A stretch of DNA of 64,000 bases from Thermoanaerobaculia bacterium (GCA_963715895.1 OY970284.1:5069777-5133776); one strand, 5' to 3'; numbered from the stretch's first letter, positions 10,765 through 29,152 are shown. Program-made: numbers and translations. The notes: generated by a model not told the origin, from the letters alone.

Positions 10765-11897
10765 CGCGCGCCTCGCGATGCCGCTTTGACAACTTCGCCT
10801 CGCCGGGCGCGGATCGTGTCGGTTGCGAGCGGCCCCCACTCGCTCCGCCAGTTGATCGAGACTCGCTGCACCGATTGATCGTGCTGCAGCGGAACGTCGA
10901 CAATCTTTCCCACTGCGACCGTCTCGCCAACGCGACGTCCATTGATGAAGCGGTGGATGCGCGAGGGCTGACGAGCGAACGCGGCTGCCGTCGGTCCACT
11001 GAGCGAAAGGCGGAGCCGTATGGCATCGTCGTGAACGATCCACGTGCGCTCGGCGGCCGACCAAGTGGCATTGAGCGGCTCGACCCGCAATGAAGGCGAG
11101 ACATCGTCAATCGTCGAGAGGCCGCCGTGATGTTCGAACGCAGAGTGCCGATGCGAAAAAACCGAGGCACCCTTGCGCCTAACCGCCTCCCCGACGAAGG
11201 TTCGCTCGTGATTCCCGTAGGCGATCACGGTCCCGTCCGCGAGCGGCTCGGCGGCGATGGACACCGCAAATCCATCGAGGTCTGCGATGAAAACTCCACC
11301 GCGATCATCGAAGCCGTTCCAGTGCTCGGCGATCGTGCCGCCGGAGCGCGGTTCGCGGTTGACGATGGTCTTCATGACCGGCCCGTCGATCGCCTTACCT
11401 TGCGCGTCGAAGACTGCGCTGCCCGCCTGAATGTGAACGCGAGACGCGCGAGGAAGAGTGTAGGCCAGCGTGCCGCTACGCCGGTCGAAGTAGCGCGGCG
11501 GAATCGAAACTGGCGTTGACGGGTGATCGGCGGGGAACCACAGCTCGCGGCTCTTCGCATCTGACCATGCGATGCGGAACGAATACGCTTCATCTGCCAC
11601 AACCCGGCCGGCGTCATCTCGTCCGTCCCACGCAAATGAGCAATTCCCCTTAACCGTGTGCGCCGCGGCGATCGAACGCACGACGAAGCCGTCGCGGTCG
11701 ACGACCTGAATGGAAGCGCGTCCCGCCTTCAGGAACGTGACGGCCAGATCGACCGTCTCGGCGGCTTTCGGATTGAACGTGTCGCGTTTCAGCGAAACGG
11801 TCCCGATCGCGCGCGTCCCCTCAGCGATGAGCGGCGAAACCAAAAGGCAGGAGGTCAGAAGAAGGAGCGTGATTTTCACCGAATGACGCATCGCCAA
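10761..11897 (-). CDS. Secreted FlgD Ig-like domain protein
   Basis: Signal peptide; FNP...VVRSI...FAWDGRDDAGRVVADEAY and a second WNGFDDRG motif. Confidence 0.75.
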   Translation of the reverse strand: MAMRHSVKITLLLLTSCLLVSPLIAEGTRAIGTVSLKRDTFNPKAAETVDLAVTFLKAGRASIQVVDRDGFVVRSIAAAHTVKGNCSFAWDGRDDAGRVVADEAYSFRIAWSDAKSRELWFPADHPSTPVSIPPRYFDRRSGTLAYTLPRASRVHIQAGSAVFDAQGKAIDGPVMKTIVNREPRSGGTIAEHWNGFDDRGGVFIADLDGFAVSIAAEPLADGTVIAYGNHERTFVGEAVRRKGASVFSHRHSAFEHHGGLSTIDDVSPSLRVEPLNATWSAAERTWIVHDDAIRLRLSLSGPTAAAFARQPSRIHRFINGRRVGETVAVGKIVDVPLQHDQSVQRVSINWRSEWGPLATDTIRARRGEVVKAASRGAR

Positions 11898-12012
11898 TCT
11901 CCATGTTCGTATCGTGGTTAGACGCCTGGGACCACAGGATCGAAACCGGTCTCGCCGACCTTGTGCCGTCTATTGATGGAGTGCCGCAGCCGACAAAAGT
12001 CCCACCCTTCGG

Positions 12013-12249
12013 TTAGTGGCTTCCAATCCCGAAGAAGAGCTCTGCTTCCGTGACCCGTCGCCCAATGAGGGCCGAACACGCCGCGACGAGCCTGGAGCTC
12101 GTTCTCGCTGAGGCAAGGCTGCCCTTTCGCAAGCGGAGGATCGTCGGCCGGCTGACGTTCGCCTTCCGTGAAAGTCGGAGCGGTCGAATGTGGTGATCGC
12201 GCAACCATCTGTCGAACGTCGTGTCGAATCTGATCGGCATCGAATTCAC
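12013..12249 (-). CDS. Small XRE-like HTH protein
   Basis: FDRWLRDHHIRPLRLSRKANVSRPTILRLRKG; similar to the HTH of the 13323-14744 protein. Confidence 0.65.
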   Translation of the reverse strand: MNSMPIRFDTTFDRWLRDHHIRPLRLSRKANVSRPTILRLRKGSLASARTSSRLVAACSALIGRRVTEAELFFGIGSH

Positions 12250-12330
12250 CCCTGGGCAGGCGTAGTTGAAGCGAACGGGTGGCGGCTGGCGGCGAGATGC
12301 AGAGAGAGATTGTCCGGGCCCGGTCCATCA

Positions 12331-13035
12331 TTACGCTGGGCAAGTGGCACGAGGTTGAAGCAGGTGTGCCTTTCGAGGTGAGGTTCGGCCGCCAGCCGCC
12401 ATAACAGTTTCGTCTTTGTTCTCTCTCCTTCTGCGTAGTCCAGCGCCACCGCTGACTACGGCAAGCGCCGCGCGACCAAGAATGGTCCCCATCGCGTCGC
12501 GAAGCGCTACCTCTATTGTTCTGAAGAACCGTTTTTCCGCCGCACTCTGACGACGCCCGCGGCGCGCAAACTCGGCGTCGCTCTCAGCGATGTCGCGGGT
12601 GGAGAGCTCGGGTTGCAGTACAAGAACGATCGGTAACACGCCTTCGCCGGTGGATTGCAGCGAGTCCATAAAACCCTCGACTACTTCGTGAACGATGAGC
12701 GAGAGCGCGCTCAAAAACTGACGCGCAGGAACCTTCGAGCCCACTGCTTCTACGATCGGCTTCCGGACTCTCCGCATGCGATCCGTAGCTTGGATGGGAC
12801 GCCGGCGAGTGGTGCTGGTCGGAGCGGCGCCGGCTTGTCGGCTGTGCGATCGTGAGGGACGGGTTGGGTTCATGTTCTGGCTTTCCGTGGGGCGATGAAG
12901 GGCCAACCTCGCCCCTTGGCGGTTAAGATACTTATGGACGTGTTTACGAACGGCAGCAGGAAACCACGCCGACCCTGTCAGGTCAACCATGGTGCAGATA
13001 TGCGTCATGTGGCTCAACCCGAGCACATCAGACAC
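12331..13035 (-). CDS. Hypothetical protein (true start uncertain, possibly ~12873)
   Basis: Long ORF upstream of the small HTH gene; no motif recognised. Confidence 0.35.
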   Translation of the reverse strand: MSDVLGLSHMTHICTMVDLTGSAWFPAAVRKHVHKYLNRQGARLALHRPTESQNMNPTRPSRSHSRQAGAAPTSTTRRRPIQATDRMRRVRKPIVEAVGSKVPARQFLSALSLIVHEVVEGFMDSLQSTGEGVLPIVLVLQPELSTRDIAESDAEFARRGRRQSAAEKRFFRTIEVALRDAMGTILGRAALAVVSGGAGLRRRRENKDETVMAAGGRTSPRKAHLLQPRATCPA

Positions 13036-13095
13036 ATTTCTGCGTCATTTGATCCGAGGGGTAGGACTTCTTTCTGTCGGTGCACTCCCTAAGAG

Positions 13096-13293
13096 ATGAT
13101 GCCCGGCGACGACCAAGCTGAACCGACGTGCTCTCCATCGACAGCCGATGCGTGGTTATTGATCGACTACCGCCTGATGTGCGACTGCGTGGGGCCGCTC
13201 AGCCTTGCCGACTTCATCGCGGGCTACCGGTCGATCGATGAGTGGTTCGCACACCATCATTTGCCGCTGCCGGAGATGCAACTTGCGAGTTGA
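13096..13293 (+). CDS. Small hypothetical protein
   Basis: 65-aa ORF with protein-like composition directly upstream of the XRE-TPR gene. Confidence 0.35.
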   Translation: MMPGDDQAEPTCSPSTADAWLLIDYRLMCDCVGPLSLADFIAGYRSIDEWFAHHHLPLPEMQLAS

Positions 13294-13322
13294 CGGATGC
13301 CGGTAAACACACGAGGGCTGCT

Positions 13323-14744
13323 GTGCTGACGCGACTCGAGATCTTCAGGGTGTCGCGGGGCATCGCGGTCGGAGACCTGATCGCGGAAGCGGGTATCAGC
13401 CGCCAGCATCTGCTCCGGATGCGCAAAGGCGAACTCCAGCCCCGCCGCGACATGATCGCGGCGGTCGTATCGGCATTGCGGCAGCTCTCACTCGAAGACG
13501 TGCAGCCGGAAGACGTTATCGAGCTCACGGTCGAGGAATCCGGACCTTGGCGACGGCAAGGCCGGCAACGCCTCTCTGCAGATATCAGCGAGTGGAAACG
13601 CGAGCGCGACGCGGCGGCTGATCTCCTTGGGGCGCTGCCGAAGATGCCTATCGATGATTGGCTTCCATTCTTGGAGAAGCGCGCACACTCCGACGCAGCC
13701 GTGCGTGCACTGCTCTTCGAGGGTCGCCGCATCATCGACGAAGACCCGCGGCATGCCCGTGCGCTCTTTCATGTGGCGACCCAACTGGCAGAGCGTCTGA
13801 CGACCATTCGCCGCGAATACCGGCTCGCGCTCGTGGGGAGAGCCTGGCTTGAACTCGCGAACGCGCTCCGACAACTCGGCTTGATTCGAGAGGCCTTGGG
13901 TCCGCTTGAAGAGGCGGAGCGCCGATTCGAGGGAGAGCCGTACTGCACGAAGGAGCTTGGCCGCGCATGGCTCGCGCGCGGCACGATTCTCATGAAGATG
14001 GGCGATCTTGCCGGAGCGGAGCACTACCTCGCCTGCGCGGTGAACATCTTCGCCGCTGTCGACGATCCGGTTCGCATCGCGAAGGTTCGGATGGTGCAAG
14101 CGGGGGTGCTCTTCGAACGGAGCGATTTCGAGGGAGCGCGCTCGCTCTGGCTCGCGGCGGTACCCGCCTTGAGCGCCGGCAGGGAGCGCCACGCGCTGCC
14201 GGTCGCGTGGTTGAATCTTGGCCTCTGCGACGTGGAACAGAACCGTATCGGGTCGGCAAGAACGTGGCTCGAAAAAGCGTTGCACGCTTTTCAACGCATT
14301 CGCTGCGAGGTCGAGGTGCTTCGAACGCAGTGGGCGCTCGCGCGTATCAACGCGCTCTTTGAGGATCGGAAGTCCGGCTTAGCGGCGTTGTTCCAACTGC
14401 GTGCCGCCTTCGAGAAACGCGGCCTTCTCACCGATGGCGGGATGGTGATGCTCGATGCGACGGAAGCATTGCTCATCCCACCGCGACGGCCGGGAGCAGC
14501 GGCTCAAATCTGCAACTCGCTACCTCAGCTCTTTGACCGCGCCGGTGCGACGCGGGAAGCACTCAAGGCTCTGGCGTATCTCCAGGAGGCGGCAGCGGCG
14601 CATCGCCTCACGGTGGAAGATGTCCGTTCCGTAAAAATCTTTTTGGATCGCGCAGAAGACGGACAAGAGGATGCGTTCGTGCCGCCGAAGAAAAGAAGCG
14701 CGACGAGGAGCGAGCGGCCTGCAGGCCCCTCGTCGGACGGGTGA
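13323..14744 (+). CDS. XRE-HTH + tetratricopeptide repeat regulator
   Basis: N-terminal HTH (DLIAEAGISRQHLLRMRKGELQP) followed by TPR helices. GTG start at 13323 after GAGG (ORF track begins 13242). Confidence 0.8.
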   Translation: MLTRLEIFRVSRGIAVGDLIAEAGISRQHLLRMRKGELQPRRDMIAAVVSALRQLSLEDVQPEDVIELTVEESGPWRRQGRQRLSADISEWKRERDAAADLLGALPKMPIDDWLPFLEKRAHSDAAVRALLFEGRRIIDEDPRHARALFHVATQLAERLTTIRREYRLALVGRAWLELANALRQLGLIREALGPLEEAERRFEGEPYCTKELGRAWLARGTILMKMGDLAGAEHYLACAVNIFAAVDDPVRIAKVRMVQAGVLFERSDFEGARSLWLAAVPALSAGRERHALPVAWLNLGLCDVEQNRIGSARTWLEKALHAFQRIRCEVEVLRTQWALARINALFEDRKSGLAALFQLRAAFEKRGLLTDGGMVMLDATEALLIPPRRPGAAAQICNSLPQLFDRAGATREALKALAYLQEAAAAHRLTVEDVRSVKIFLDRAEDGQEDAFVPPKKRSATRSERPAGPSSDG

Positions 14745-15015
14745 CCCACAGGTGCGCTTATGGATGCGGAACTGAAATGCGGCTTTCGAGCAGCAAGTCG
14801 AACAAGAGATCCAACATGGACAGACCCTCCTCCTCCCGCCGCGATACCTGCGGCAGCGATGGTTGATGGAGAGGGCCGGCCCTCGCTCGGTCTAGGGATT
14901 ACCGATGTCGCAAATGTATGACCCCGAAAATCATCCTTTCGCCGGGTCGGAAGGGCTGTTCGCTATACTTCCGGCCATTCCGGCACCGCATCGACTTCTG
15001 CGGTCGCGCCTCCGT

Positions 15016-15537
15016 ATGTCCGAACCCACAGATACATCGCTCCTCGATGTGGACACGCAGGTCACGGCGGCGTATCACGAGCACTACCGAGTGCTGGAAT
15101 ACGTCGCGGTGCAGAAATTCCGCATCCCGGACGAGGACGTGCGCGGGCTTATCCACGAGGTATTCGTGGCCTTCATCAAGGCGCGAAATAAGGTGTACGA
15201 CGAGCGGGCGTGGCTAGTCGGCGCGATGTGCAACCATTGCCGGCTGTATTGGCGCGCCCACGGCCGGGACGCCGGCGCTCTTCCCCTCGACGAGGAACGC
15301 GCGTGCGACGCCGAGGATGTGGCGAGGCGCGTCGACGTGAGCACGGTGCTGCGGCGTCTGCCGCAACGCTGCCGCGAGATCCTGCACCTGCGGTTCTTCG
15401 AGGAATACTCATCCGAGGAGATCGCGAACCATTTCGCAACGACGGTCCAGTACGCCAGAAAGATGGTCTATCGGTGCGTATGTGCTGCCCGGCTAGTTCT
15501 CACGCGCATCACGGTTCGCAGGAGCCAGCAGCCGTGA
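15016..15537 (+). CDS. ECF (sigma-70 group 4) RNA polymerase sigma factor
   Basis: Region 2 (EDVRGLIHEVFV...AWLVGAMCNHCRLYWR) and region 4 (LRRLPQRCREILHLRFFEEYSSEEIA); TATACT -10-like box at ~14964. Confidence 0.88.
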   Translation: MSEPTDTSLLDVDTQVTAAYHEHYRVLEYVAVQKFRIPDEDVRGLIHEVFVAFIKARNKVYDERAWLVGAMCNHCRLYWRAHGRDAGALPLDEERACDAEDVARRVDVSTVLRRLPQRCREILHLRFFEEYSSEEIANHFATTVQYARKMVYRCVCAARLVLTRITVRRSQQP

Positions 15538-16874
15538 TCGATGGCCACTACGAGAGCTGGGAACTCCTTGCGTTCATCGAGGAGGCCCGTGACATCGTTG
15601 ATATGGATGCCGCAGCCATCCACATCGATACGTGCGATATCTGCGGCGCTGGGATGCGCGAGTGGCGCGCTTTCATCGGTCTTTTCTTTGATCGGGACGT
15701 GTATGAATTCGCCCGCCGAAAGACGATGCGGCTGCTTGCTGCACAAGTTGCCGATGCCCAGAATGTCGCCCGGCGAGTCATCGTGGAGGACGCGGCAGCG
15801 GAGCACACCTTTGCGACGCTTTCGGACTGTCCGATCGAGTCCTGGGCGGCCTACCTTTCGGCGAGGCCGGGGCTGCGGACTGAAGGACTGATTCGGCGGA
15901 TCATCCGCGACGCTCGCGACGAATATGACATTCACGCGGAACGTGCGCTGAAGCTCCTTGAGGTGGGTGTCACGATCGCGAATTCTCTCTCCGACGTCAC
16001 AGCGATCGCCGAGCAACGCGCGACGCTCGCAAAGGAGCGCGCGAATGCACTCCGGATGCTGAGCCGCTATCCGGAAGCCTTGGAGTCGCTCGACGAAGCG
16101 GAGCGGTTCCTGGACGTTGTCCCGATCACTGGTGCCGATCGCGCGCTGATAGATTGGGCGCGCGCGACAGTCCTCTTCTATATGACACGGTACTCGGAGG
16201 CGTTGCCGCTCGTCCGCGCCGCGAGTGCTGAACTGATGCGCTTCGGTGAGCTTCCGCGCGTCCAACAAGCAAGGCTGCTTGAAGCGGGAATTCTGTATGA
16301 GATGGGCGAGGTGGAGTCCGCTCTCCGGATGTACGAGGAACTGACATCGTACTTCTTCAGTCTCGACGACGCCGAGACCACGGCGCGCATTTTAGCTAAC
16401 CGCGCTGAGTGCGAGATGCGTCTGGATCGGCCGGGAATCGCGCGCGCACACGCCGCGCGGGCGATCCGATTGTACGAAGAGCTTGGGAAGCCATCCGAGA
16501 AGACACGGGTGCAGTGGACGCTTGCACACATGCTCCTACGCCAAGGGCGGGCGAATGAGGCGCTCGATGATCTCCGTGCCGTCGCGAGCGCGTTTGAGGC
16601 GCTCGGAATGCGGGCAGAGGCAGGCGGAGCTTTGCTCGATATCGTTGAAATCCACGTTGGCCTGCATGAGTGGGAAGATGCGATCCCGCTCGCACGCCAC
16701 CTCGCCGGGCTCTTCACCGTGCTCGAGACGTCGCTACATGCGGCGACAGCCTATGCGTATCTCCGCGAAGCGGTTGAGGCGCAACACGCATCCCAGGAGT
16801 TGGTGGCGTACATTCGGACGTACGCAGAGTTGCCCGACACAACCGAAGCTCCGTTCGTGCCGCCGCAAACGTAG
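15534..16874 (+). CDS. ZAS (zf-HC2) anti-sigma domain + TPR protein
   Basis: GTG start overlaps the sigma stop (GTGA); H..W.L..F...HIDTCDIC (HxxxCxxC) followed by TPR helices; no TM. Confidence 0.8.
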   Translation: MIDGHYESWELLAFIEEARDIVDMDAAAIHIDTCDICGAGMREWRAFIGLFFDRDVYEFARRKTMRLLAAQVADAQNVARRVIVEDAAAEHTFATLSDCPIESWAAYLSARPGLRTEGLIRRIIRDARDEYDIHAERALKLLEVGVTIANSLSDVTAIAEQRATLAKERANALRMLSRYPEALESLDEAERFLDVVPITGADRALIDWARATVLFYMTRYSEALPLVRAASAELMRFGELPRVQQARLLEAGILYEMGEVESALRMYEELTSYFFSLDDAETTARILANRAECEMRLDRPGIARAHAARAIRLYEELGKPSEKTRVQWTLAHMLLRQGRANEALDDLRAVASAFEALGMRAEAGGALLDIVEIHVGLHEWEDAIPLARHLAGLFTVLETSLHAATAYAYLREAVEAQHASQELVAYIRTYAELPDTTEAPFVPPQT

Positions 16875-16910
16875 TCTGCGCCGCGCCGCTGCTTTAATGA
16901 TGGAAGTTGA

Positions 16911-17016
16911 GGGTACATTCGTGGGTACATCGGGTGACCCGGAAGCGGAGAAACGTAGGTTCCATGCGGGTTTTAGGGTGGTGCGCACACGGGTTCAAAT
17001 CCCGTGTGCGCTACCA
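16911..17016 (+). mobile_element. Attachment site (attR-type): tRNA 3' fragment (tRNA-Glu-like) with core symmetry and arm-type repeats
   Basis: ACGGG-TTCAAAT-CCCGT T-arm, acceptor 3' strand GTGCGCT-A-CCA (16987-17016), no D or anticodon arm upstream. 11-bp perfect inverted repeat around the T loop; GGGTACAT direct repeats at 16911 and 16923. Confidence 0.75.
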
Positions 17017-17078
17017 ACCTGACATGCCCTACTCGCTCGACGCACCGAGCAGCGCCGGCATCGTCCACCGCGGTTCAC

Positions 17079-19589
17079 TCACTTGTGCTGTCGCGGCTCC
17101 GCGTTCTTCACGTACTTGTCGAACCAGCGCAGTTCCTCGTAGGCGAGCTGTTCGTTCGACTCCATGGACGCGTACCAGTGCGGCTCGTGAGGCAGCATGA
17201 CCAGACGGACGACGCCCCCGTTGCCGCGGATGGCCTGGAAGAGCTGCTCGGACTGAAGCGGGGTCGTGCCGGGGTTGGCGTCGTCGGAGCCGTGCATGAG
17301 GAGCAGCGGAGCCTTCATCTTGTTGGCGAAGAAGTAGGGGGAGACTTTGAGATAGACGTCTTGAGCGTTCCACACCGAACGACTCTCGTTCTGGAAACCG
17401 AACGGCGTCAGCGTCTTGTTGTAGGCGCCACTGGTGGCGACGCCCGCCCGGAACAGATCGGTGTGGGCGACCAGGTTCGCGGTCATCAACGCACCGTGGC
17501 TGTGCCCCGTGACACCGATGCGGTCCCGATCGACGACGCCGAGCTCCACGGCTTTGTCCACCGCGGCCTGCGCGTCATCGACCAGCTGATCGATGTACGT
17601 GTCGTAGGCCTTCTTCGGGTCTCCGACGATCGGAAATGCCGCGTTGTCGATGATCGCGTATCCGGAGAGGAGCAGCAGTTGATAATTGCCCAGTCGCGTG
17701 AACGTCTGCTCGGAGCCGCTGACCTCGCCGGCGGTCTTGGAGCTGGCATAGTCGAGCGGGTAGGCGTAGAGGATCGCCGGCACCCGCGTGCCCTCTTTGT
17801 AGCCGGGCGGGGTGTAGAGGGTGAACGAGAGCGCCACGCCGTCCTTTCGCTTGTAGGTCACCAGGCGTTTCCTGATTGCACGCACGGCGGGCGTCGGGTC
17901 AGGGATCTGCGTTACGGCGCGCGCGGTCGAGGCGATCGTTGCTTCGCCTGGGGCGGCGCTCGGCACCGGCGCTCCGAGTGTGCGCAGCATGAGATTGGGC
18001 GGTTCCGAGGGGGTCTGGTGCCAGGTGAGAAGCGCGTCGGAGGCGTCGTTGGCGAAGGTCAGGAAGTACTCGTACGCGTCCTTGCCGCTGCGGAAGAGGC
18101 GTCGCGGCTTGCCGGTACGAAGATCGAAGCTGTCGAGAAACGGACGGTCCCCCGCCGTTGACGCCCCCTGGCCGCTCAGGAAGATCGTGTCGCCTTTCTG
18201 ACGTATGGCCCACTGGCCGTTCGGCAGGATGCGATAGACAGGCTGGCCCGGATCGTCATAGGTCTCGTCACTCGACAGGTCCCAGATCAAGCGCGGCTTG
18301 GTCTCGGGGTGGTCGGCGTCGATCAGGAACGTTCGGCGCCAGTGACGGTTGTCGTCGTACTCCCGGAGCAATCCGGCGCCGCGTCGCTCGCTCCATTCGA
18401 TCCCTTCGTATCGTTGCTCGGTGCGCGCGATCTCGACGGGGTTGGTTGTGAACGGCGCGCTCTGCATGAAGACTTTGTCGCGCGCGGGTACGCTCGTCTT
18501 CCAGTCTCCCCCATCGAGCGCCTCGGCCCATACCAGTGTCGCGGGCTCGGTGGGACGCCATTCGTGGTCGCGTGGACCGGTGGGCACGCCGTGGATCGGC
18601 ACGTGATCGGCGATGGGCAACTTCGCGAGCGGCGTCGCTTTGCCGGTGCGGTCCCATACTTCGACGTCGTTCGCAAAGCGGCCGTAGGTCACCGCATAGG
18701 AATACGGTTTGCGGATCGAGGTCACCAGGATGTGCTCACCGTCGGGCGAGAGGTCGACGTCGCTCAAGACCGCGGGCGCGCCGACGCGGGTGACAGCGCC
18801 GCTGGCGACGTCGACCAGCGCGAGCTGGCTCGTGCCGTAGTATTCGAAGAGTGCCGCGTCGGCCTGGTTTCTCAGCGTGTCACGCGCCTCATAGGTGCTG
18901 AACTCGCCGCCTCCCGTCGACTCCTGAATACGCGGGCCGTCGGTTCCCGCCTCGGCCGCCGGCGGCGCGCCAATGTCGTCGGGAACCAGCTTCACCAGCA
19001 GAGTCTTGCCGTCGGGCGTCCACCGGTGCGAGCTGCCGAGCATCGGGTTGAGCCGCACGCCGCCGACGCGGTGCGTGGTGCCGTCGCGGGCGCCGGCCCA
19101 GAGCTCAACCGCGTCGCGAGAAGTGTTGCGGAACGCGAAGCTCACGCCGTCGGCTGCCCACGAGAAGCCGTCGGCGCAGCCGCCGGGTGGCAGCGCGATC
19201 GGCGTCTCGTGACGGGTCACGATGTCCACGACGGAGAGCGTCTGTGCGCACGGTGCCACTCCGTAGCCGCCGGGCGTGTCGTGCTTGCGGCGCGTCCGTG
19301 GCTCGACGCGCACTCCGGCCAGTTTCAGAAATGGCTCCGCCACCTGCGCAATGGCCGGGTATTGAACCCATGACACGAGAAGCGCGCTCCCGCGCGTCGG
19401 ACTCAGGATCGGTCGCGGCGGCGTGGGCGCGTGCAGGACGTCGAGCACGTACTGCGGCGGCAGGTCGTAACCTGAGAGGCGCTCCGGAGCCGGCCCGGGC
19501 GGGGCCGATGCCGCGATCGTTGCTGTCGAGAGGAGAGCCACCGTCAGAACGAGAGAGCTGCGAGAGACCCGACGAGTTGAAGGTGCCAT
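17079..19589 (-). CDS. S9 family prolyl oligopeptidase/glutamyl endopeptidase-like serine peptidase
   Basis: Signal peptide, beta-propeller, nucleophile GHSHG, HGSDD, EPHWY. Confidence 0.9.
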   Translation of the reverse strand: MAPSTRRVSRSSLVLTVALLSTATIAASAPPGPAPERLSGYDLPPQYVLDVLHAPTPPRPILSPTRGSALLVSWVQYPAIAQVAEPFLKLAGVRVEPRTRRKHDTPGGYGVAPCAQTLSVVDIVTRHETPIALPPGGCADGFSWAADGVSFAFRNTSRDAVELWAGARDGTTHRVGGVRLNPMLGSSHRWTPDGKTLLVKLVPDDIGAPPAAEAGTDGPRIQESTGGGEFSTYEARDTLRNQADAALFEYYGTSQLALVDVASGAVTRVGAPAVLSDVDLSPDGEHILVTSIRKPYSYAVTYGRFANDVEVWDRTGKATPLAKLPIADHVPIHGVPTGPRDHEWRPTEPATLVWAEALDGGDWKTSVPARDKVFMQSAPFTTNPVEIARTEQRYEGIEWSERRGAGLLREYDDNRHWRRTFLIDADHPETKPRLIWDLSSDETYDDPGQPVYRILPNGQWAIRQKGDTIFLSGQGASTAGDRPFLDSFDLRTGKPRRLFRSGKDAYEYFLTFANDASDALLTWHQTPSEPPNLMLRTLGAPVPSAAPGEATIASTARAVTQIPDPTPAVRAIRKRLVTYKRKDGVALSFTLYTPPGYKEGTRVPAILYAYPLDYASSKTAGEVSGSEQTFTRLGNYQLLLLSGYAIIDNAAFPIVGDPKKAYDTYIDQLVDDAQAAVDKAVELGVVDRDRIGVTGHSHGALMTANLVAHTDLFRAGVATSGAYNKTLTPFGFQNESRSVWNAQDVYLKVSPYFFANKMKAPLLLMHGSDDANPGTTPLQSEQLFQAIRGNGGVVRLVMLPHEPHWYASMESNEQLAYEELRWFDKYVKNAEPRQHK

Positions 19590-19726
19590 GAAGAGATTAT
19601 CTACCGAACGGCGTGGAGTGTCGTTTCAAGTTCCAGCAAAGGGCGATGAAACAGATTCTCTCTTTTCAAAGCTAACCCGTTGATTCTTAGGATTTAAACG
19701 TCTGTTCTGCGGATCAAACCTTCTTG

Positions 19727-19850
19727 CTCTGCAGAGCAAGCCTTCTGCACTGCGTAGCTGACTTTCTGCTCTGCGTAGCTGACTTTCTGTTCTGCGTAGC
19801 TGACTTTCTGCTCTGCGTAGCTGACTTTCTGCTCTGCAGAGCAACTTTTC
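19727..19850. repeat. 21-bp tandem repeat (CTGCGTAGCTGACTTTCTGCT; 4 near-perfect copies plus degenerate flanks)
   Basis: Read directly from the sequence. Confidence 0.9.
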
Positions 19851-19890
19851 AGTTCCAGAGCCTCAACGACTTGTTCCGCGGATGAAACAC

Positions 19891-20276
19891 GTTGATCTGA
19901 CGGATCAAACTGGGTGTTCTGCGGATCAAACACGTTGATCTGACGGATCAAACTGGGTGTTCTGCGGATCAAACACGTTGATCTGACGGATCAAACTGGG
20001 TGTTCTGCGGATCAAACACGTTGATCTGACGGATCAAACTGGGTGTTCTGCGGATCAAACACGTTGATCTGACGGATCAAACTGGTTGTTCTACGGATCA
20101 AACATGTTGTTCTGACGGATCAAACAGGGTGTTCTGCGGATCAAACATGTTGTTCTGACGGATCAAACCAGTTGATCTGAAAGATCAAACTCTTGATCTG
20201 ACGGATCAAACCAGTTGTTCTGAGGAATCAAACGTTTGATCTCGGGCATCAAACCAGTTGTTCTGAAGGATCAACC
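19891..20276. repeat. 43-bp tandem repeat built from two ~21-bp GGATCAAAC subunits, decaying rightward
   Basis: GTTGATCTGACGGATCAAACTGGGTGTTCTGCGGATCAAACAC at 19891, 19934, 19977, 20020; variants at 20063, 20106, 20149; single subunits beyond. Confidence 0.92.
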
Positions 20277-20398
20277 TGTTCATCTCGCGGGGCGAGCGAT
20301 TCCCTACCCCGCATTGAACCACCCCTACCATTTTAGGTAGTTGCATACATCCCACGGCTGGGACATGATGGGGACGGTCCCAAAATTTTATTTAGCCT

Positions 20399-23300
20399 AT
20401 GTCAACCTTCTCGCGCAACATCCTGCTCGCGTTAGCTGTCGTCATCCCTTGCTTCGGAAACGCCTACGCCTTGCCGGCACCGCGCCGGCCGGTGCCGAAG
20501 GCAAAGACGGTGGCGAAGGGGACGGACGTTCCTAACGGCACGCGTCATGCGTCGGTCCCGATCGTCCAGGCGCCCTATACCGGCGCGCCGCCGCTCGCGG
20601 TCGCGAACGCCGTTCGGACGCCGCCCCTGAGCAAAATGAAGGTCATTCCGCCGCCGTTTCGCGGTGAAGACGAGGACCGCTTCGAGCCGGTCCATCCGGT
20701 GCGTCCCACCGATACTCCGGCCGAGGATGGCAAACGGCAGATGATCATGGGGCAGACTCGCTCCGCTCCTGTCTCCACGGGCCTCAGCTTCGAGGGCGTC
20801 GGCACCGGCCTTCCGGGGTTCTTCCCCTGCTGCGTTCCGCCAGACACCAACGGACACGTCGGCGCCACGCAGTACGTACAGTGGAACAACCTCAGCTTCG
20901 CGGTCTGGGACAAGAGCGGGAACAAACTCTTCGGACCGGCGGCCGGCAACACCCTCTTTCAGCCGCTCGGCGGGGTTTGCGCCTCGCACAACGACGGCGA
21001 CCCGGTCGTCAACTACGACGTTCTGGCCGGGCGCTGGGTCGTCTCGCAACTGGCCGTCTTTGCCAATCCCGGCTTCTCGCACCAATGCGTGGCCGTGTCG
21101 CTCACCAGCGACGCCATCGGCGCCTGGTACCTCTACGACTTCATCACCGATCCGGTGAACTTCGTCGATTATCCGAAAATGGCTGTCTGGCCCGACGGCT
21201 ACTACATGTCCGGGCATATCTACGACGGCAGCGGCTCGTCCTACCTTGCCGGACGAATCTATGCCTTCGAGCGCGACAAAATGCTCAATGGCCAGCCGGC
21301 CCGGATGCTGAGCAAGGATCTCAAGCAATACGGGGGGTTTCCCCAGTACGGTTTTCTGGCGGCGGATCTCGACAGCCCCCTGCCGCCCCCTCCCGGCGAA
21401 GCGGAGTTCGTCATCGGGCCCGATCCCGCATCGACCACCCTCCTCGATTCGACCAGAGTAGCGGTCACGTGGGGGGTAACGCCGGCGATCGCGTTCACCG
21501 AGACGCAAATCAGCGCCAGTTGGGGCATACCACCGTGTGTGAGCGGCGCCGGCAGCCGCGCCTGCGTTCCGCAGCCACCGCCGGCCTCGGGATCCGACTA
21601 CCTCGACAACCTCGATCAGATCATGATGTACCGGCTCGGCTACCGCAACTTCGGAGGATCGCCGGTACAGGAGTCGCTGGTCGGCAACATCACCGTGGCC
21701 GGCAGCACGAGTACTCCCCCGCACGGCGCCATCCGCTGGTTCGAGTTCCAGAACGCCGGCGACTCCACGGCCACGCCAACGGTTTACCAGGCCGCCACGT
21801 TCGATCCCGACAGCGACTACCGCTGGATGGGCTCGATCGCCATGGACAAAGACCACAACATCGCGCTGGGCTACAGCAAGTCGAGCACGACCGTCCTGCC
21901 GTCGATCTTCGTCAACGGACGCCTCGGCACCGATCCCATCAACACGCTCGGCACCGAGACACAGATGATGGCCGGAGCCGGCGTGCAGTTTTCGTATAAC
22001 CGCTGGGGCGACTACAGCTCCATGACCCTCGACCCCATCGACCAGTGCACTTTCTGGTACACCAGTGAGTATCTGCAGGCGAACGGTGCCTTCAACTGGG
22101 CCACGCGCATCGGCGCGTTCAAGTTCCCATCGTGCACCCCCGTATCGTGGGGCAACCTCAGTGGGAACATCACCTCGTGCGCGACCGGCGCGCCGATCGG
22201 CGGCGTCATCGTTTCGCTCGGCAACGGATATTCCGTGGCCAGCGACGCCTCGGGGCACTACTCGGTGGCCGTCCCGGCCGGCACCTACACCGCCACCGCC
22301 GCCGGTACAGACCTCAATTGTTCGTCCAGCTCGCCCGCCACGGTCAGCGTGATCGTGCCGGTCGACGGCACGGTGACGCAGGATTTCTGCATGGCCGGGA
22401 GCTCGAAGCTCGAGTCCGGCGCTGTTTCCATCAGCGACACCGCCGCCGGCAACGGCAACGGCATCGTCAACCGGAACGAGTGCTTCGACCTCAGCGTCAA
22501 CGTCGCCAACAACGGCTGCGCCAGTGAGTCCGCCATCAGCGCCACGCTGACGACGTCGACACCTGACGTGACCGTCACGCAGGGCAGCTCGTTCTATCCC
22601 GACCTGGCCGTTGGCGCCAACGGCGCTAATTCCATTCCATTCAGGATCAACACGGCATCGACGTTCGTCTGTGGTACGGCCATCAACTTCACGCTGAATC
22701 TCACGTACGCCAGCGGCAGCAAGTCGGTCGGCTTCACGGTGCCGACCTGCGGCAACGGCGGGAGCGCCGTCATTCCGATCAGCTCCCTCAGCCCGACCGA
22801 CCCGAGCCAGCCCGACCGGCTGTACCGCATTGGCACTCCAAGCAGTTGCGGCAACAAAGCCTGTCCCGGTCCACTCGGTGGCGGCACCTACTACTACAAG
22901 ACGTTCAAGTTCACCAATTCCAGCGCCGCGACCGCCTGCATCACCGTCACCATGAACGGAGCATGCGGGTCGAGTGGCGGCCAGGTCGAGACCTCGGCCT
23001 ATCTCGGAAGTACCTATACGCCTCCGGCGACCGGGGGCGGCAATATCTGCAACAACTACCTGGGCGATGCCGGCAGCAGCGTCGGCTCGATTCTCCCCAG
23101 TGTCACCTTTTCCTTCAACGTCCCCGCCCTTTCGGACTTCGTCATCGTCGCCAACACCGTGGACGTGGGTAGTTGCACGCAGTTCTCCGGCACCGTCAGC
23201 GGCTTGATCGACAACACTGCCGGTCCCGGCCCATGCCCAACCTGCACGCCTCCGGCGACGCCGGCGATCACCCCGGGCGGCCCGACGACGTTCTGCGCCG

Positions 23301-26300
23301 GCGGCAGCGTGACGCTCACCTCCAGCGCCGCAAGCGGCAACCAGTGGTACCGCAACGGCGCCCCGATCGCCGGCGCAACCGGCGCCTCGCAAGCCGCCAC
23401 CGCCGGCGGCAGCTACACCGTCACCACCACCACGGGCGGCTGCATCAGCGCGCCGGCGCCTGCGATCACCGTGACGGTCAATCCGATTCCCGCCACGCCA
23501 ACGCCGTCGAACGGCGGTCCGTTCTGCGAAGGGTCGACGATCTCCCTCTCGACTCCGGCCGCGACCGGCGCGACCTACGCCTGGACGGGGCCGAACGGCT
23601 TCACCTCCGCGCTTCAGAGCCCGACCCACGCGAACGCGGCGGCCGCCGATGCCGGCACCTACTCCGTCACCGTCACGGTCAACGGTTGCACCTCGGCCGC
23701 CGGCACGACCAGCGTCGTCGTCAATCCTCTTCCGGCGACGCCGGCGCCGTCGAACGGCGGCCCGTTCTGCACCGGTCAGACGATCTCGCTCTCGACGCCG
23801 GCGCTGAGCGGCGCGACCTACCATTGGACGGGCCCGAACGGCTTCTCCTCGTCCCTGCAGAATCCGACGCACGCGAATGCCACGGCGGCGGATGCGGGCA
23901 CGTACTTCGTTACCGTCACGGTGAATGGCTGCCCCTCGGCCGGCGGAACGACAGCGGTCGTCGTGAGCCCGATTCCGACGGCGCCGGCAGCGTCGAACGG
24001 CGGGCCATACTGCGCCGGCTCGACCATCGCGCTCTCGACACCGTCCATCAGCGGCGCCACCTACGCCTGGACCGGGCCGAACGGCTTCACCTCCGCGCAA
24101 CAGAACCCGACGCGCGCGAACGCGGCCACCGCCGACGCCGGCACGTATTCGGTCACCATCACCGTCAACGGCTGCACCTCGGCCGCGGGGACGACGACCG
24201 TCGTCGTCAACACCGCCGCACCGGCAACGCCCACCGCCGGCAACAGCGGTCCGTTCTGCGAAGGGAGCGCGATCGCACTTTCCACCCCGGCTGTCGCGAA
24301 CGCGACCTACGCCTGGACGGGGCCAAACGGCTTTACGTCTTCGCTGCAGAATCCGACGCGGGCCAACGCCACCGCTGCCGATGCGGGGACCTACTCCGTC
24401 ACCATCGCCACCGGCGGCTGCAGCTCGGCGGCCGGAACGACGGCCGTCGTGGTCACACCGAAACCGGCCACGCCGGCGGCGGGCAATGGCGGTCCGTACT
24501 GCGAAGGAAACACGATCGCGCTCTCGACGCCTGCGGTGAGCGGCGCGACCTATGCGTGGACGGGTCCGAACGGCTTTGCATCGCCATTACAAAACCCGAC
24601 GCGCCCGAACGCCGCCGCCGCTGACTTCGGCACCTACGCGGTGACGGTCACAGTCAACGGCTGCACCTCCGCGGCCGGTACGACGAACGTCATCGACTCC
24701 AATGCCGCGGCGGTGGCGAGCAACGGCGGTCCGTACTGCGCCGGCGACACGATCGCCCTCTCCACGCCGGCGGTGCCCGGCGCCACCTACGCATGGACCG
24801 GCCCGAACGGCTTCACCTCCGCGGCCCAAAGCCCAACCAGTCCGAACGCCACCGCCGCCGATGCCGGCACGTACTCCGTGATCGTCACGACGACCGGCTG
24901 CGTCTCGCTGGCAGGCAGCACCAGCGTCGTCGTAAACACCTCCGCGGCGACACCGGCGGCGTCGAACGACGGTCCGTATTGCGAAGGCTCCACGATCTCG
25001 CTCTCCACCCCCTCGGTGCCGGGCGTCGTGTCGTATGCCTGGACCGGCCCGAACGGCTTCACGTCATCGCTCCAGAATCCGACCATCGCCAACGCCACGA
25101 TCGCCGTCGCCGGCACCTACTCGGTGACCATCTTCAATGGCTGCACCTCAGCGGCAGGCGACACCACGGTCGTCGTCAACCCCGCGCCGGCAGCGCCAAC
25201 GGCCTCCAACAGCGGCCCGTTCTGCGCCGGCGGGACGATCTCTCTCTCGACACCGCTCGTGACCGGGGCGACCTACGCCTGGAGCGGCCCGAACGGCTTC
25301 ACCTCGCTGCTGCAGAGCCCCACTCGCGCCAACGCCACCGCCGCCGACGCCGGCACCTATTCGGTGACCGTCACCGTCAACGGCTGTACGTCTCCGGCCG
25401 GCACGACGGACGTCGCCGTCAACACGCTCGCGGCGCCCTCCCCGGCGAACGGCGGGCCGTACTGCGCCGGCGCGACCATCGCGCTGGCAGCTCCCATGGT
25501 GACGGGCGCGACGTACTCGTGGAGCGGCCCGAACGGATTCACTTCGTCCCTGGTCAACCCGACGCGACTGAGCGCGGCGGCCGCCGACGCCGGCACCTAC
25601 TCCGTGACGGTCACCGTCAGCGGCTGCACATCGCCCGCCGGGACGACGGACGTCATCGTCAACCCCATCCCGTCGACACCTGCCGCGTCGAACGGCGGTC
25701 CGTACTGCGCCGGCAGCACGATCTCCCTCTCGACACCGCTCGTCAGCGGCGCGGCCTACGCCTGGACCGGCCCGAACGGCTTCACCTCCTCGCTGCAAAA
25801 CCCGACGCGCGCGAACGCGGCCACCGCCGACGCCGGCACGTACTCCGTGACGGTCACGGTCAACGGCTGCACATCCCCCGCGGGGACGACAAACGTCGTC
25901 GTCCATGCCATGCCGTCAACTCCGGCGGCGACGAACGGCGGCCCGTACTGCCCCGGCGCCACGATCCTGCTCTCGACACCGTCCGTCAGCGGCGCGACCT
26001 ACGCCTGGACCGGCCCGAACGGCTTCACCGCCTCGCAGCAGAACCCGACGCGCGTGAACGCCACGGCCGCCGACGCCGGCACCTACTCGGTCACCGTCAC
26101 GGTCAACGGCTGCACCTCGCCGGCGGGCACGACGAACGTCGCCGTCAACACACCCGCGGCACCGACGATCATCGCGAACGGCCCGACGACGTTCTGCTCC
26201 GGCGGCAGCGTCACGCTGACCTCGAGCAGCGCCACCGGCAACCAGTGGCGAATGAACGGCTCGCTGATCATCGGCGCGACGAACACCACCTACACGGCCA

Positions 26301-27568: not shown

Positions 27569-27594
27569 CCGCAGTCCTCACAGTCTCACTTAGG

Positions 27595-27683
27595 TCGTCG
27601 GCACCTTGTTACCCGTCGAGAGCCTTCTCCCCCCGCGGTTTTTTGCGGGGGGAGAAGGTGCGACAGGCGGATGAGGGGGGCGT
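27595..27683. repeat. REP-like palindromic element, copy 1
   Basis: CCTTCTCCCCCC...GGGGGGAGAAGG hairpin followed by GGCGGATGAGGGG. Its inverted partner is at 27788-27818 plus 29412-29468, split by the IS110. Confidence 0.8.
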
Positions 27684-27925
27684 ACACGTGAATGCGCGAC
27701 TTACCGACGCTGGTCCGGAAACCGCTTTGAAGGCGCCGCAAGCATGGTTGCCATTCGGCTCGCGCGTTCGAATGACGTCCGTGTGAAACGCCCCCTCATC
27801 CGCCTGTCGGCACCTTCTGCTCTGAAGTTTGGGTGGGTGGGGAGACAGAAAGGTACTGGGCGGCTCGAAAGGCCGTTCGAGGGGAGGTTGTTTTGTCGGC
27901 CGTGGGCGCGGCCCGCGAGAGCAGG

Positions 27926-29152
27926 TTAGGTGTTCAGTGGCTTACAGTTCACCTCATAACCGAGCTTGGTGAGCTCACGCATGAGATGGCGCGAGCGTTG
28001 TTGTCGGGTGACCTCGGGATCAGCATTCCGGGGTGGGGTGTACGGGACCTTCTTGGAGATCATGTGGTAGAGCGCGACAGCGATTTCGCGAGCGACAGCC
28101 ACGAAGGCACGTCGAGGTCCGCGGCGCGCAGCAAGGCGGTGGAAGCGGTGCGCGAGGTGCGAACCGATGGTCTGTGAGGCACCCACTGCGGCCTGAATGA
28201 GGATGGTTTTCACGTAGGGGTTCCCTTCGCGAGCCTTTGCCTTTTTGCGAACGCCGGCACTTTCGCGATTGCCGGGACAGGTTCCCGACCAGGCTGCGAA
28301 CTGACGATCAGTCTTCCAGGCCGTCATGTCCGTTCCGATCTCAGCGATCAGATCGATTGCCAATATCCGGTTCACGCCGGGAATGGTGTCGAGCAAGGCG
28401 ATCACGTCTTCGAAGGGGCCGACTTTCTTCTGAATGAGCTTTTCTAATTGCTCGATCTGAGCTTCCAGATCGGCGATGACCTTCAATTCCACTCGCAGCA
28501 GGCTCGCGTCTTCCTTGCTGAATGATCCTCGAAAGGCACGCATCAGCGCCCCTCGCTTCCCACGCAGCCTCCCTTTGGCCAACTCCGACAACTCCCGAGG
28601 ATCCGTCACTCCGCCAGCCAATCCGGCCAGCATCAGACGTCCAGAGACCCCGAAAATATCTGAGGCAACCGAAGACAGCTTGATGGTCGCGCACTGCAGA
28701 AGCTTCTCCACGCGCAGCAGACATGCCGTGCGCGTCTGCATCAGCTTGCGCCGGTAACGCGAGGCCTGTCTCAGATCACGGATCGGCCGCGGTGGAACGA
28801 AGTTCGGTTGAATCAGGCCATGTCGCAGAAGCTTGGCGATCCACTGCGCATCGGAAACATCCGTCTTTCGTCCGGGTACATTCGCCATGTGGCGGGGGTT
28901 CCCGAGGATGATTTCCAGTACTCCCTCCAGCACTTGGTATACCGGCATCCAATACACGCCGGTGCTTTCCATCGCCACATGCGTGCACTGCCTTTGGATC
29001 AACCAATCACGCATGCGCTCGATCTCATCGCGAAACGTTCCGAATGTGCACGTGACCACCGTCGGCGGGCTGCTCCGCCCATCGATACAACACGCCACGA
29101 TTTTCTTTTTGTGCACGTCCAGACCTGCTCCCACTACAACGACTACTTCCAT
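27926..29152 (-). CDS. IS110-family recombinase/transposase
   Basis: DEDD RuvC motifs GLDVHK, AMESTG, KTDVSDA; TIPGV; catalytic Ser in GNRESAG; AGGAGG RBS. Confidence 0.95.
   Translation of the reverse strand: MEVVVVVGAGLDVHKKKIVACCIDGRSSPPTVVTCTFGTFRDEIERMRDWLIQRQCTHVAMESTGVYWMPVYQVLEGVLEIILGNPRHMANVPGRKTDVSDAQWIAKLLRHGLIQPNFVPPRPIRDLRQASRYRRKLMQTRTACLLRVEKLLQCATIKLSSVASDIFGVSGRLMLAGLAGGVTDPRELSELAKGRLRGKRGALMRAFRGSFSKEDASLLRVELKVIADLEAQIEQLEKLIQKKVGPFEDVIALLDTIPGVNRILAIDLIAEIGTDMTAWKTDRQFAAWSGTCPGNRESAGVRKKAKAREGNPYVKTILIQAAVGASQTIGSHLAHRFHRLAARRGPRRAFVAVAREIAVALYHMISKKVPYTPPRNADPEVTRQQRSRHLMRELTKLGYEVNCKPLNT

Follow-up and report, generated by a model that had tools for sequence, protein, structure and literature searches.

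A sigma factor cassette of Acidobacteriota with related TPR modules in a predicted soluble anti-sigma factor and an HTH protein, and with a candidate peptide ligand

For most sigma factors of the extracytoplasmic function (ECF) type, control is assumed to lie with anti-sigma factors that reside in the membrane and read signals from outside the cell, and the inputs of soluble anti-sigma factors, among them RsrA and ChrR with their zinc-binding anti-sigma (ZAS) domain, are known in few cases. A peptide-based route to a sigma factor is found in the RRNPP systems of Firmicutes, where ComR/ComS controls sigma X. Tetratricopeptide repeats (TPRs) are used in ECF sigma regulation in the groups ECF42 and ECF267, in the former as a C-terminal extension of the sigma factor and in the latter within an anti-sigma partner described as FecR-like, and soluble anti-sigma factors are, in the available part of the same source, predicted in just 10 ECF groups, with more being expected (PMC7826278). 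Here we describe a locus in a 64,000-nucleotide stretch of DNA from Thermoanaerobaculia bacterium (GCA_963715895.1 OY970284.1:5069777-5133776, in the following termed the window), where an earlier note on the interval 12013-16874 had proposed a signalling system on a mobile element, composed of an ECF sigma factor, two TPR proteins fused either to a helix-turn-helix (HTH) or to an anti-sigma domain, and a solo HTH protein. All four genes are found in this interval upon reading of its open reading frames (ORFs). Our analysis confirms the observation and partly supports its interpretation, by which one ligand-binding TPR module would control both a repressor and the release of the sigma factor. 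The best reading of the locus, which we hold at a probability of roughly 0.55 from sequence, predicted structures and analogy, is a cassette that combines a sigma/soluble anti-sigma pair with a receptor-peptide pair resembling RRNPP systems and in particular ComRS.

The sigma factor scores 47.2 bits against the NCBIfam model TIGR02937 for sigma70-ECF proteins (cut-off 42.9) and matches Pfam Sigma70_r4 with an E-value of 4.1e-7, with region 2 being recognized weakly (0.066). It ends at 173 residues without a C-terminal extension or fused TPRs, in contrast to ECF42 proteins. Its closest relative of known structure is SigL of M. tuberculosis (E 1.5e-8), the partner of RslA, and, as in SigL/RslA and in SigW/RsiW of B. 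subtilis, a sigma factor reduced to regions 2 and 4 is encoded next to a coupled anti-sigma gene whose product contains H...H-x3-C-x2-C ligands. The translational coupling that had been read from the sequence is evident in the GTG start of the anti-sigma gene at 15534, which overlaps the sigma stop codon (15535-15537) as GTGA, and an equivalent NTGA overlap is present in 14 of the 15 homologous loci described below, the fifteenth showing an 8-nt gap. The HxxxCxxC motif that had suggested an anti-sigma domain forms part of a set of candidate zinc ligands with an additional upstream histidine (H5, H30, C34 and C37), which is invariant in 17 ZAS-TPR homologs down to 30% identity, and a profile of these sequences returns weak matches that are in register to RsiW (E 0.0093, residues 15-69 on 15-69), RslA (E 0.056) and DdvA (E 0.19).

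We have modelled the sigma factor together with zinc and residues 1-100 of the ZAS-TPR protein in three runs alongside three controls. The complex obtained an ipSAE of 0.74 (0.74-0.75 between runs) compared to 0.00 in all three controls, with at least 87% of contacts shared between the runs and a partner predicted local distance difference test (pLDDT) value of at least 82; in calibration, the mark applied to this score was reached by 116 of 157 solved complexes and by 2 of 215 mismatched pairs. The prediction thus agrees with the sigma-ZAS interaction anticipated in the earlier note, and in the model the ZAS domain is inserted as a wedge between regions 2 and 4 of the sigma factor, with contacts to residues 8-57 and 104-162, respectively. 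The highest mean Kyte-Doolittle hydropathy over 19 residues in ZAS-TPR is 1.29, a value indicating no membrane segment, and since by hydropathy no paralog contains a hydrophobic segment between its ZAS and TPR parts, the family appears to consist of soluble anti-sigma factors. We consider it well supported, by sequence and structure prediction alike, that the ECF sigma factor is held by a soluble ZAS-TPR anti-sigma factor, for which zinc binding and inhibition of sigma are predicted and whose C-terminal eight-repeat TPR superhelix is, in the model, the sole candidate for an input domain. In other class I zinc anti-sigma factors this place is taken by a periplasmic domain, a cupin or nothing, whereas here it is occupied by a cytoplasmic superhelix of 350 residues, and 14 ZAS-type copies of the family are found in a single genome. 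The pair DdvS/DdvA of Myxococcus xanthus similarly contains an ECF sigma factor and an anti-sigma factor with an N-terminal ZAS domain and TPRs; as described in the available part of the source, DdvA is organized as ZAS, single transmembrane helix, TPR and CHAT with the TPR-CHAT portion being periplasmic, whereas the protein described here is soluble, contains 446 residues and shows no match to CHAT (PMC11506125). We found no published description of a soluble ZAS-TPR anti-sigma factor or of an RRNPP-type system in Acidobacteriota, in a search that did not cover the supplementary tables of the ECF classification, so that an ECF group with such a partner may already exist.

The TPR regions of both large proteins are true paralogs as judged from their sequences. 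In a BLASTP alignment, the HTH-TPR protein (termed XRE-TPR in the earlier note) and ZAS-TPR share 95 of 367 residues (26%, E 3e-19) in a colinear arrangement, which extends from the linker preceding the TPRs to the F-V-P-P end. A hidden Markov model (HMM) of the family, built from copies in the window's own 6.64-Mb genome (G000), assigns scores of 139-593 bits to 18 ORFs of this genome but 99 bits to the best generic TPR protein, and the likeness is therefore specific to the family instead of reflecting TPRs in general. The A-N-A-L-R-x-L motif and the C-terminal A-L-A-Y-L-x-E-A...F-V-P-P sequence, previously regarded as an unusual signature of these two proteins, are indeed common to both but not private to them, as the alignment finds them across all 18 paralogs. 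At their N-termini, 13 of these paralogs carry H-x3-C-x2-C, one D-x3-C-x2-C, two an HTH and one another sequence, with the last being a fragment. The two HTH-bearing members are the window copy and a copy at 1.085 Mb, 13 of the 14 ZAS-type members directly follow a paralog of the window's sigma gene, and most of the family are plain sigma/anti-sigma pairs that lack an HTH-TPR protein. The pair is found in tandem duplications at two places (G000:C1:6316057-6320449 and 3252085-3255279), with two complete pairs arranged back to back at 6.316 Mb, and one pair followed by a C-terminal fragment at 3.25 Mb. In the HTH-TPR protein itself, a Cro/C1-type HTH at the N-terminus is followed by a linker in which S-G-P-W is invariant, then by the family-specific TPR superhelix and finally by a tail with the sequence F-V-P-P. 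Pfam detects TPR_12 in both large proteins of the window and HTH_26 weakly in both HTH proteins, and of 22 aligned HTH-TPR sequences, 11 are recognized by HTH_26 and 10 by HTH_3.

Searches with HTH-TPR (E <= 1e-20) find matches in 42 of 201 genomes of the class, a tally that takes in two genomes flagged as unpublished (G131 and G175), and these are distributed as 40 of 48 genomes in one family (f1), the single genome of a second (f2) and none of 151 in the other 18 families. With ZAS-TPR as query (E <= 1e-15), 7 of 301 genomes in a phylum-wide sample contain a match, all belonging to f1, f2 or being the window's own, and no match was found in the remaining 294. Among 1.84 billion representatives, the relatives of ZAS-TPR number 1484 at E <= 0.001, a figure that falls to 699 at 1e-10 and to 119 at 1e-30. 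Of the 150 relatives listed, the majority are full-length with about 440-460 residues; where a source gives a name, it is no more than 'TPR repeat protein' or 'hypothetical', and the named records carrying them are metagenome-assembled genomes (MAGs) of Thermoanaerobaculia or Acidobacteriota. In the sequences covered by these surveys, the family is restricted to this lineage and the cassette is confined to one order of Acidobacteriota.

For a comparison of gene neighbourhoods, we assembled 15 loci, which include the window, the second copy of its genome and 13 places identified from full-length HTH-TPR matches, and an alignment-based scan, which returned four loci, added two new ones from named MAGs; a related-locus search with a single HTH-TPR protein as query gave three weak and unrelated TPR matches only. 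The order HTH-TPR, sigma, ZAS-TPR on one strand, in the following termed the triad, is kept in all 15 loci and in both additional ones (17/17), in line with the expectation that it would be conserved elsewhere, with the HTH-TPR gene of one locus (L048) being broken into three pieces. In a phylogenetic tree of 42 TPR modules, which leaves out the window and L043 as duplicates of rows from their own genome and three fragments of less than 250 residues, the 14 modules of first genes (HTH-TPR) form one clade with a support of 98 in the SH-like approximate likelihood ratio test (SH-aLRT), non-triad copies of the window's genome fall into a separate clade (98) and the modules of third genes group together with a support of 85. 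The subclades of first genes are mirrored by those of third genes, which suggests that the triad has diversified as a whole unit. A sigma/ZAS-TPR pair located at 751 kb in the same genome nests within one triad subclade and is found without HTH-TPR; the peptide gene described below is missing too and the palindrome is degraded, while the TATACT box has been kept. Since HTH-TPR, peptide gene and palindrome are all lost or degraded at a place where the sigma and anti-sigma genes were retained, they probably work together, and although this is a single case, it is the best evidence in the sequences to suggest their joint function. That HTH-TPR, the peptide gene and the intergenic elements constitute one conserved cassette together with the sigma/anti-sigma pair is well supported by these comparisons. 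No common regulon could be read from the neighbourhoods of the triads, where shared neighbours are limited to small subsets of loci, and Pfam returned nothing for five conserved neighbours in L053.

The gap between the stop codon of HTH-TPR and the sigma ATG extends over 169-384 nt in the 15 loci, and every gap holds an ORF of 17-24 codons on the opposite strand, with a GGAGG-type ribosome-binding site and an ATG or GTG start. This ORF was found by a script in 15 of 15 triads and is also present in the two further loci, and its end encodes the motif S-x-[ILF]-[SGT]-[VIF]-P-[HDNK]-[PG], followed by 0-2 residues and the stop. The copy of the window converges with the HTH-TPR gene, with 13 nt between both stop codons, and diverges from the sigma gene, and in all 17 loci the HTH-TPR and peptide genes are adjacent or overlapping. 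The N-terminal part of the encoded peptide is hydrophobic and amphipathic with acidic residues spaced about four apart, and it ends in S-R-I-S-V-P-H-P. At conserved residues, the choice among synonymous codons differs from locus to locus, the pattern expected of a translated ORF, and variants of the tail track the clades of the receptor. As a genome-wide control, a looser version of the tail motif occurs 35 times in the six-frame translation, and just 4 of these occurrences are combined with both a ribosome-binding site and a hydrophobic core. They comprise the copies of the two triads, an orphan at G000 4050345-4050404 and one probable chance match. The peptide tails bear a loose likeness to the C-terminal tails of the triad TPR proteins (x-V-P-x-[PG] compared to F-x-P-P), and no clear co-variation between the two kinds of tails was found across the triads. 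Rfam gave no match in 11800-17200 at E <= 1, and a structured RNA leader, considered at 14818-14900 on the minus strand upstream of the peptide start, is not supported, as its fold is no stabler than those of shuffled sequences (z = -0.61).

Two DNA elements recur between the peptide gene and the sigma gene. A TATA[CA]T box is located 27-52 nt before the sigma ATG in all 15 triads, whereas among the 11 non-triad sigma genes of the same genome it is found only at the 751-kb pair and at 3972018. No -35 element was recognized by eye or by a sigma-70 promoter scan near the TATACT box; the scan reported 0 sites, with 2 weak terminator-like sites only. The second element is a GC-rich palindrome that stands 50-79 nt before the box. 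Its perfect form GAG(R)G...C(Y)CTC was detected by script in 8 of 15 triads and shorter forms of the GC core in 2 more, imperfect palindromes can be read in most of the others, and L058 contains a perfect form of 22 bp. A 17-mer version of the window palindrome has one other near-match in the genome. At the position occupied in triads, the GAG(R)G palindrome is absent from all 11 non-triad sigma genes, with one distal script match at -203 before the sigma gene at 6318492. Two of these non-triad genes (6114262 and 4330411, G000:C1) have in common GGGTAGGGAA...TCTGTCACTCC about 30-60 nt before their start, which may be an autoregulated promoter of the ECF type, unlike the TATACT box of the triads. 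The gap of L055 (6486-6868) contains an additional, nearly perfect inverted repeat of about 180 nt beside the HTH-TPR stop, which looks like a small mobile insertion or one of the repetitive extragenic palindromic (REP) kind.

Predicted structures place both TPR proteins among superhelices that bind extended chains. The AlphaFold2 (AF2) models have pLDDT values of 88.3 for ZAS-TPR and 79.6 for HTH-TPR, the latter displaying an eight-repeat superhelix, and Foldseek searches against the PDB return for both LGN/Pins first, followed by Rap proteins, with E-values down to 3e-8. VIA-align scores of HTH-TPR are highest for LGN (Z 24.8, root-mean-square deviation 4.9 Å, 299 residues aligned), followed by RapJ (21.2), NprR (20.5) and the TPR portion of DdvA (18), and thus the comparison with RRNPP receptors that had been suggested finds a likeness to NprR and RapJ, but with LGN exceeding both. 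The profile search with ZAS-TPR shows the same order (LGN E 7e-9, RapJ E 3.4e-4, NprR E 0.008), and is marginal for RRNPP proteins. LGN, Rap and NprR enclose extended peptides within the superhelix, and the resemblance of the TPR fold makes peptide binding plausible. LGN/Pins, the best profile and structural match, is a eukaryotic cell-polarity scaffold, and here the likeness is one of fold and repeat type but not of function or ancestry.

The analogy to RRNPP systems, drawn in the earlier note from the HTH-TPR architecture, gains from the conserved small peptide gene beside HTH-TPR and is weakened by the missing features of export. As in ComR/ComS, Rgg/SHP and NprR/NprX, the gene of an HTH-TPR receptor has as its neighbour that of a hydrophobic peptide of very few residues, which is conserved towards its C-terminus, and a palindrome is situated between the gene of the peptide and that of an alternative sigma factor. 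Unlike these systems, the host belongs to Acidobacteriota and not to Firmicutes, the peptide has an acidic N-terminus without export signal, and the sigma factor has a dedicated anti-sigma factor, which bears a paralog of the receptor's sensor module. The five features by which an RRNPP signature has been defined, in the part of the source available, are peptide size, export, receptor size, TPRs and adjacency (PMC10075063). Four of the five are found here, with a peptide of 19 residues (17-24 elsewhere, compared to 10-100), a receptor of 473 residues (250-500), TPRs and adjacent genes (PMC10075063).

Combining these features, the cassette consists of four genes and two DNA elements, with HTH-TPR as putative DNA-binding receptor, the convergent gene of a 17-24-residue peptide, the palindrome, the TATACT box and the sigma/ZAS-TPR operon, and HTH-TPR carries the same TPR module attached to an HTH where ZAS-TPR has its ZAS domain. 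The peptide would be the ligand of HTH-TPR, forming an RRNPP-like pair that is nearest to ComR/ComS, and HTH-TPR bound at the palindrome might govern how the sigma operon, the peptide gene or both are transcribed. The paralogous TPR module of the anti-sigma factor might sense the same or a related peptide and in response release the sigma factor. Its acidic N-terminus and the lack of signal-peptide features suggest that the peptide may act inside the producing cell, and a role as intracellular micro-protein ligand appears at least as likely as that of a secreted pheromone. More tentative, and in our view doubtful, is the full proposal of an RRNPP-kind system outside Firmicutes in which one peptide gates both HTH-TPR at its operator and the soluble anti-sigma factor, thereby imposing two layers of sigma control, and in which the x-V-P-x-[PG] end of the peptide may displace the F-x-P-P tail of the TPR proteins acting as a pseudo-ligand.

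Several observations weigh against a peptide-responsive cassette. Production of the peptide and its binding to either TPR module, and with them the notion of one ligand with two outputs, are what we infer. The A-N-A-L-R motif and the F-x-P-P tail are common to 18 paralogs, whereas of their loci in this genome only the 2 triads have the peptide gene, and since the paralogs mostly lack a peptide gene the groove may bind something family-wide, possibly the F-x-P-P tail itself. The orphan peptide gene (G000:C1:4050345-4050404, plus strand), with the same tail motif and a ribosome-binding site, is placed between a small unknown gene and a glucose-6-phosphate-dehydrogenase-like gene, with no member of the TPR family near. 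On inspection, the peptide combines a mean hydropathy of 0.69 with an acidic N-terminus and contains neither a basic N-region nor a signal-like segment; its length leaves no room for both a signal and a mature part, and it shows neither a Sec signal nor the basic-then-hydrophobic character of short hydrophobic peptides (SHP) exported by PptAB, as described in the accessible part of the RRNPP source (PMC10075063). The likeness in fold is not diagnostic, as TPR superhelices match one another broadly and LGN ranks above any RRNPP protein. The length of the GC core of the palindrome varies by clade between 10 and 22 bp overall, which is unusual for a fixed dimeric operator and weakens this assignment. 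Concerning the anti-sigma factor, Pfam zf-HC2 has no match in residues 1-99 of ZAS-TPR at E <= 0.01 and matches just 1 of 17 homologs (E 0.0045), and the favourable score of the sigma-ZAS model may reflect a likeness to solved sigma/anti-sigma complexes.

The presence of A-N-A-L-R and F-x-P-P in all 18 paralogs, mostly without a nearby peptide gene, would also be accounted for by a switch between protein partners, where the TPR modules bind each other, a common partner or their own F-x-P-P tails, HTH-TPR acts as transcription factor or as anti-anti-sigma factor, and the small ORF encodes an unrelated micro-protein. LGN/Pins as top structural match, being a protein-protein scaffold, and the orphan peptide gene without TPR partner are in line with this possibility; we nevertheless regard it as unlikely in light of the strict linkage of the peptide gene to HTH-TPR in 17 of 17 loci, its absence along with HTH-TPR at the 751-kb pair and the variation of its tail in step with the receptor clades. 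A redox or thiol-stress switch is a further alternative, which we consider improbable. There, the ZAS domain would be the sensor, as in RsrA or ChrR, its oxidation would free the sigma factor and the TPR module would serve as scaffold or stabilizer, a proposal that fits the invariant ligand set H, H-x3-C-x2-C and a soluble ZAS-TPR protein comparable to RsrA and ChrR, but leaves the paralogous HTH-TPR and its linked peptide gene unexplained. It is further at odds with the replacement of the second histidine by aspartate in one triad subclade, including the 751-kb copy, and thirteen separate redox sensors in one genome are implausible. Finally, the peptide ORF may be untranslated, its conservation then being due to an element that functions as DNA or RNA, for instance a structured leader or a terminator that serves the convergent HTH-TPR gene. 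Given the very short ORF and the overlap of its 3' end with that of the HTH-TPR gene in several loci, this has to be considered, but all 17 loci have retained the ribosome-binding site, start codon, reading frame and stop, the codons of conserved residues vary in their third position, and neither an Rfam family nor a stable upstream leader was found, which leaves it a very small probability.

RRNPP systems residing on mobile elements control the behaviour of the element, and the cassette could likewise serve as decision circuit of such an element, with the divergent RHS operon or functions of a prophage-like kind under its control, as the earlier note had envisaged. The window copy occupies one end of a segment of 48 kb that is delimited by tRNA-Glu on one side and by a 34-nt repeat of the tRNA 3' end on the other, this segment holds an integrase and a replication-initiator-like gene, and the RHS operon and the solo HTH gene also accompany the triad in L049. 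Although the mobile setting of the window copy has gained support in this way, neither proposed target has: the RHS operon is found with just 2 of 15 triads (the window and L049), the one match of the palindrome in the window is not close to this operon, the flanks available for the 16 other loci contain no tRNA gene or tRNA-Glu fragment, and the triad proteins match no defence family of PADLOC and, apart from the sigma factor, no phage family of PHROGs. The probability of such a circuit appears similarly low as that of a redox switch, and a peptide-responsive cassette in which HTH-TPR and the anti-sigma factor contain related sensors remains the reading we prefer.

While the parts of the cassette are familiar, their combination is not, in that a sensor module is found in both a transcription factor and an anti-sigma factor, a peptide is encoded in the cassette, and the family has undergone a lineage-specific expansion. 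The analysis delineates the cytoplasmic ZAS-TPR anti-sigma factors as a large family of soil Acidobacteriota that has gone without annotation, and for one of its subfamilies the cassette itself encodes a candidate for the ligand that can be put to the test. Should the peptide bind, signalling by receptor-peptide pairs of the RRNPP type would extend past the Gram-positive bacteria and a single sensor module would have been put to use twice, in a transcription factor and in an anti-sigma factor; if both sensors read it, the 11 non-triad sigma-coupled pairs of the genome would be a large reservoir of TPR sensors located in the cytoplasm. The cassette is compact, comprising four genes and a single intergenic region for their control, and thereby suited to reconstitution in a laboratory host.

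The boundaries of the features are listed in Table 1. The most likely start of the sigma gene is ATG 15016, resulting in 173 residues, since 14 homologous sigma genes start at the equivalent position (13 with ATG and 1 with GTG). HTH-TPR most likely starts at GTG 13323, corresponding to V28 of the ORF that opens at 13242, as the majority of 21 homologs begin at the equivalent residue. For ORF-X, whose homologs in L050 and L049 align only from residue 43-51 onward, the true start is probably further inside, near 12873, and the protein has no credible Pfam family and no match in PADLOC or PHROGs. The 36-nt element is located upstream of the conserved part of ORF-X and may be a regulatory site.

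Table 1. Positions of genes and candidate elements in the window
Feature	Position	Strand	Basis and remarks
Solo HTH protein, 78 aa, Cro/C1-type	12013..12249	-	ORF; Pfam HTH_26 E 0.0014, under curated cut-off
ORF-X, conserved protein	12331..13035	-	Homologs in L050 (E 1e-62) and L049 (E 6e-24)
36-nt element	12934..12969		blastn: 94% identical in L049 within diverged flanking DNA
HTH-TPR protein, 473 aa	13323..14744	+	ORF opens 13242; Pfam TPR_12 5.5e-9
19-codon peptide ORF	14758..14817	-	GGAGG-type ribosome-binding site; S-R-I-S-V-P-H-P end
Perfect 14-bp GC-rich palindrome GAGGGCCGGCCCTC, candidate operator	14871..14884		Single match in window
TATACT box, candidate -10 element of sigma/anti-sigma operon	14964..14969	+	46 nt before sigma ATG
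ECF-type sigma factor, 173 aa, regions 2 and 4 only	15016..15537	+	NCBIfam TIGR02937, Pfam Sigma70_r4
ZAS-TPR anti-sigma factor, 446 aa	15534..16874	+	Zinc-type N-terminal domain; Pfam TPR_12
34-nt copy of tRNA-Glu(CTC) 3' end, candidate right-hand attachment site	16987..17020	+	33/34 identical

An operon encoding FlgD_ig, HYR and RHS proteins is transcribed from the minus strand, with the solo HTH gene located upstream of it in the same direction and ORF-X just upstream of the latter. The solo protein repeats the HTH of HTH-TPR, as had been noted, with 14 of 33 identities (BLASTP, E 0.001), and its inclusion as part of the system holds for some loci but is not constant: close homologs (E < 1e-29) are found near the triads of L046, L049 and L050, with matches elsewhere being weak. 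Small HTH paralogs are encoded divergently upstream of HTH-TPR in 6 of 15 loci, with two more loci ending at contig ends, and relatives of the solo gene in other parts of the genome are often found near integrase genes.

The 34-nt repeat starts 113 nt after the ZAS-TPR stop codon, and the intact tRNA-Glu(CTC) gene is found on the same strand 48 kb upstream (G000 5038703-5038778), with no third copy of this tRNA end detected in the genome by blastn or ARAGORN. The G+C content of the segment in between is 0.56-0.65, compared to 0.65-0.67 in its flanks. The triad has no counterpart at the DNA level in five genomes of the same genus, and an S9 peptidase gene just outside the segment is 87% identical in one of the five. 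From these sequence features, the window copy is a candidate for being part of an island bounded by the tRNA-Glu repeat, which may be composite since the integrase is located 33 kb from the tRNA. A direct-repeat search in window positions 1-32000 gave no att-like pair, and a Pfam integrase search of the genome identified 13 places, none between tRNA-Glu and the window, with the weak integrase of the window not being among those listed. PADLOC returned no matches for nine proteins, and PHROGs matches concern the sigma factor, the integrase and the replication-initiator-like protein only.

Beyond the cassette, the window contains tandem arrays at 19674-20290 with units of 43 and 21 nt in about 9-10 copies each, which are located between the S9 peptidase gene and that of a giant Ig/PKD protein and have many related copies scattered in one genome of the same genus (G123). 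The giant protein (20399-27568) is of a secreted type, with 2389 residues, Ig_7, PKD, TIG and dockerin domains, and about 10-12 internal repeats of 243 nt. It is followed by a transposase gene of the IS110 family at 27926-29152, beside which, at about 27570-27818, a sequence of some 110-250 nt is found that recurs many times in genomes of the same genus.

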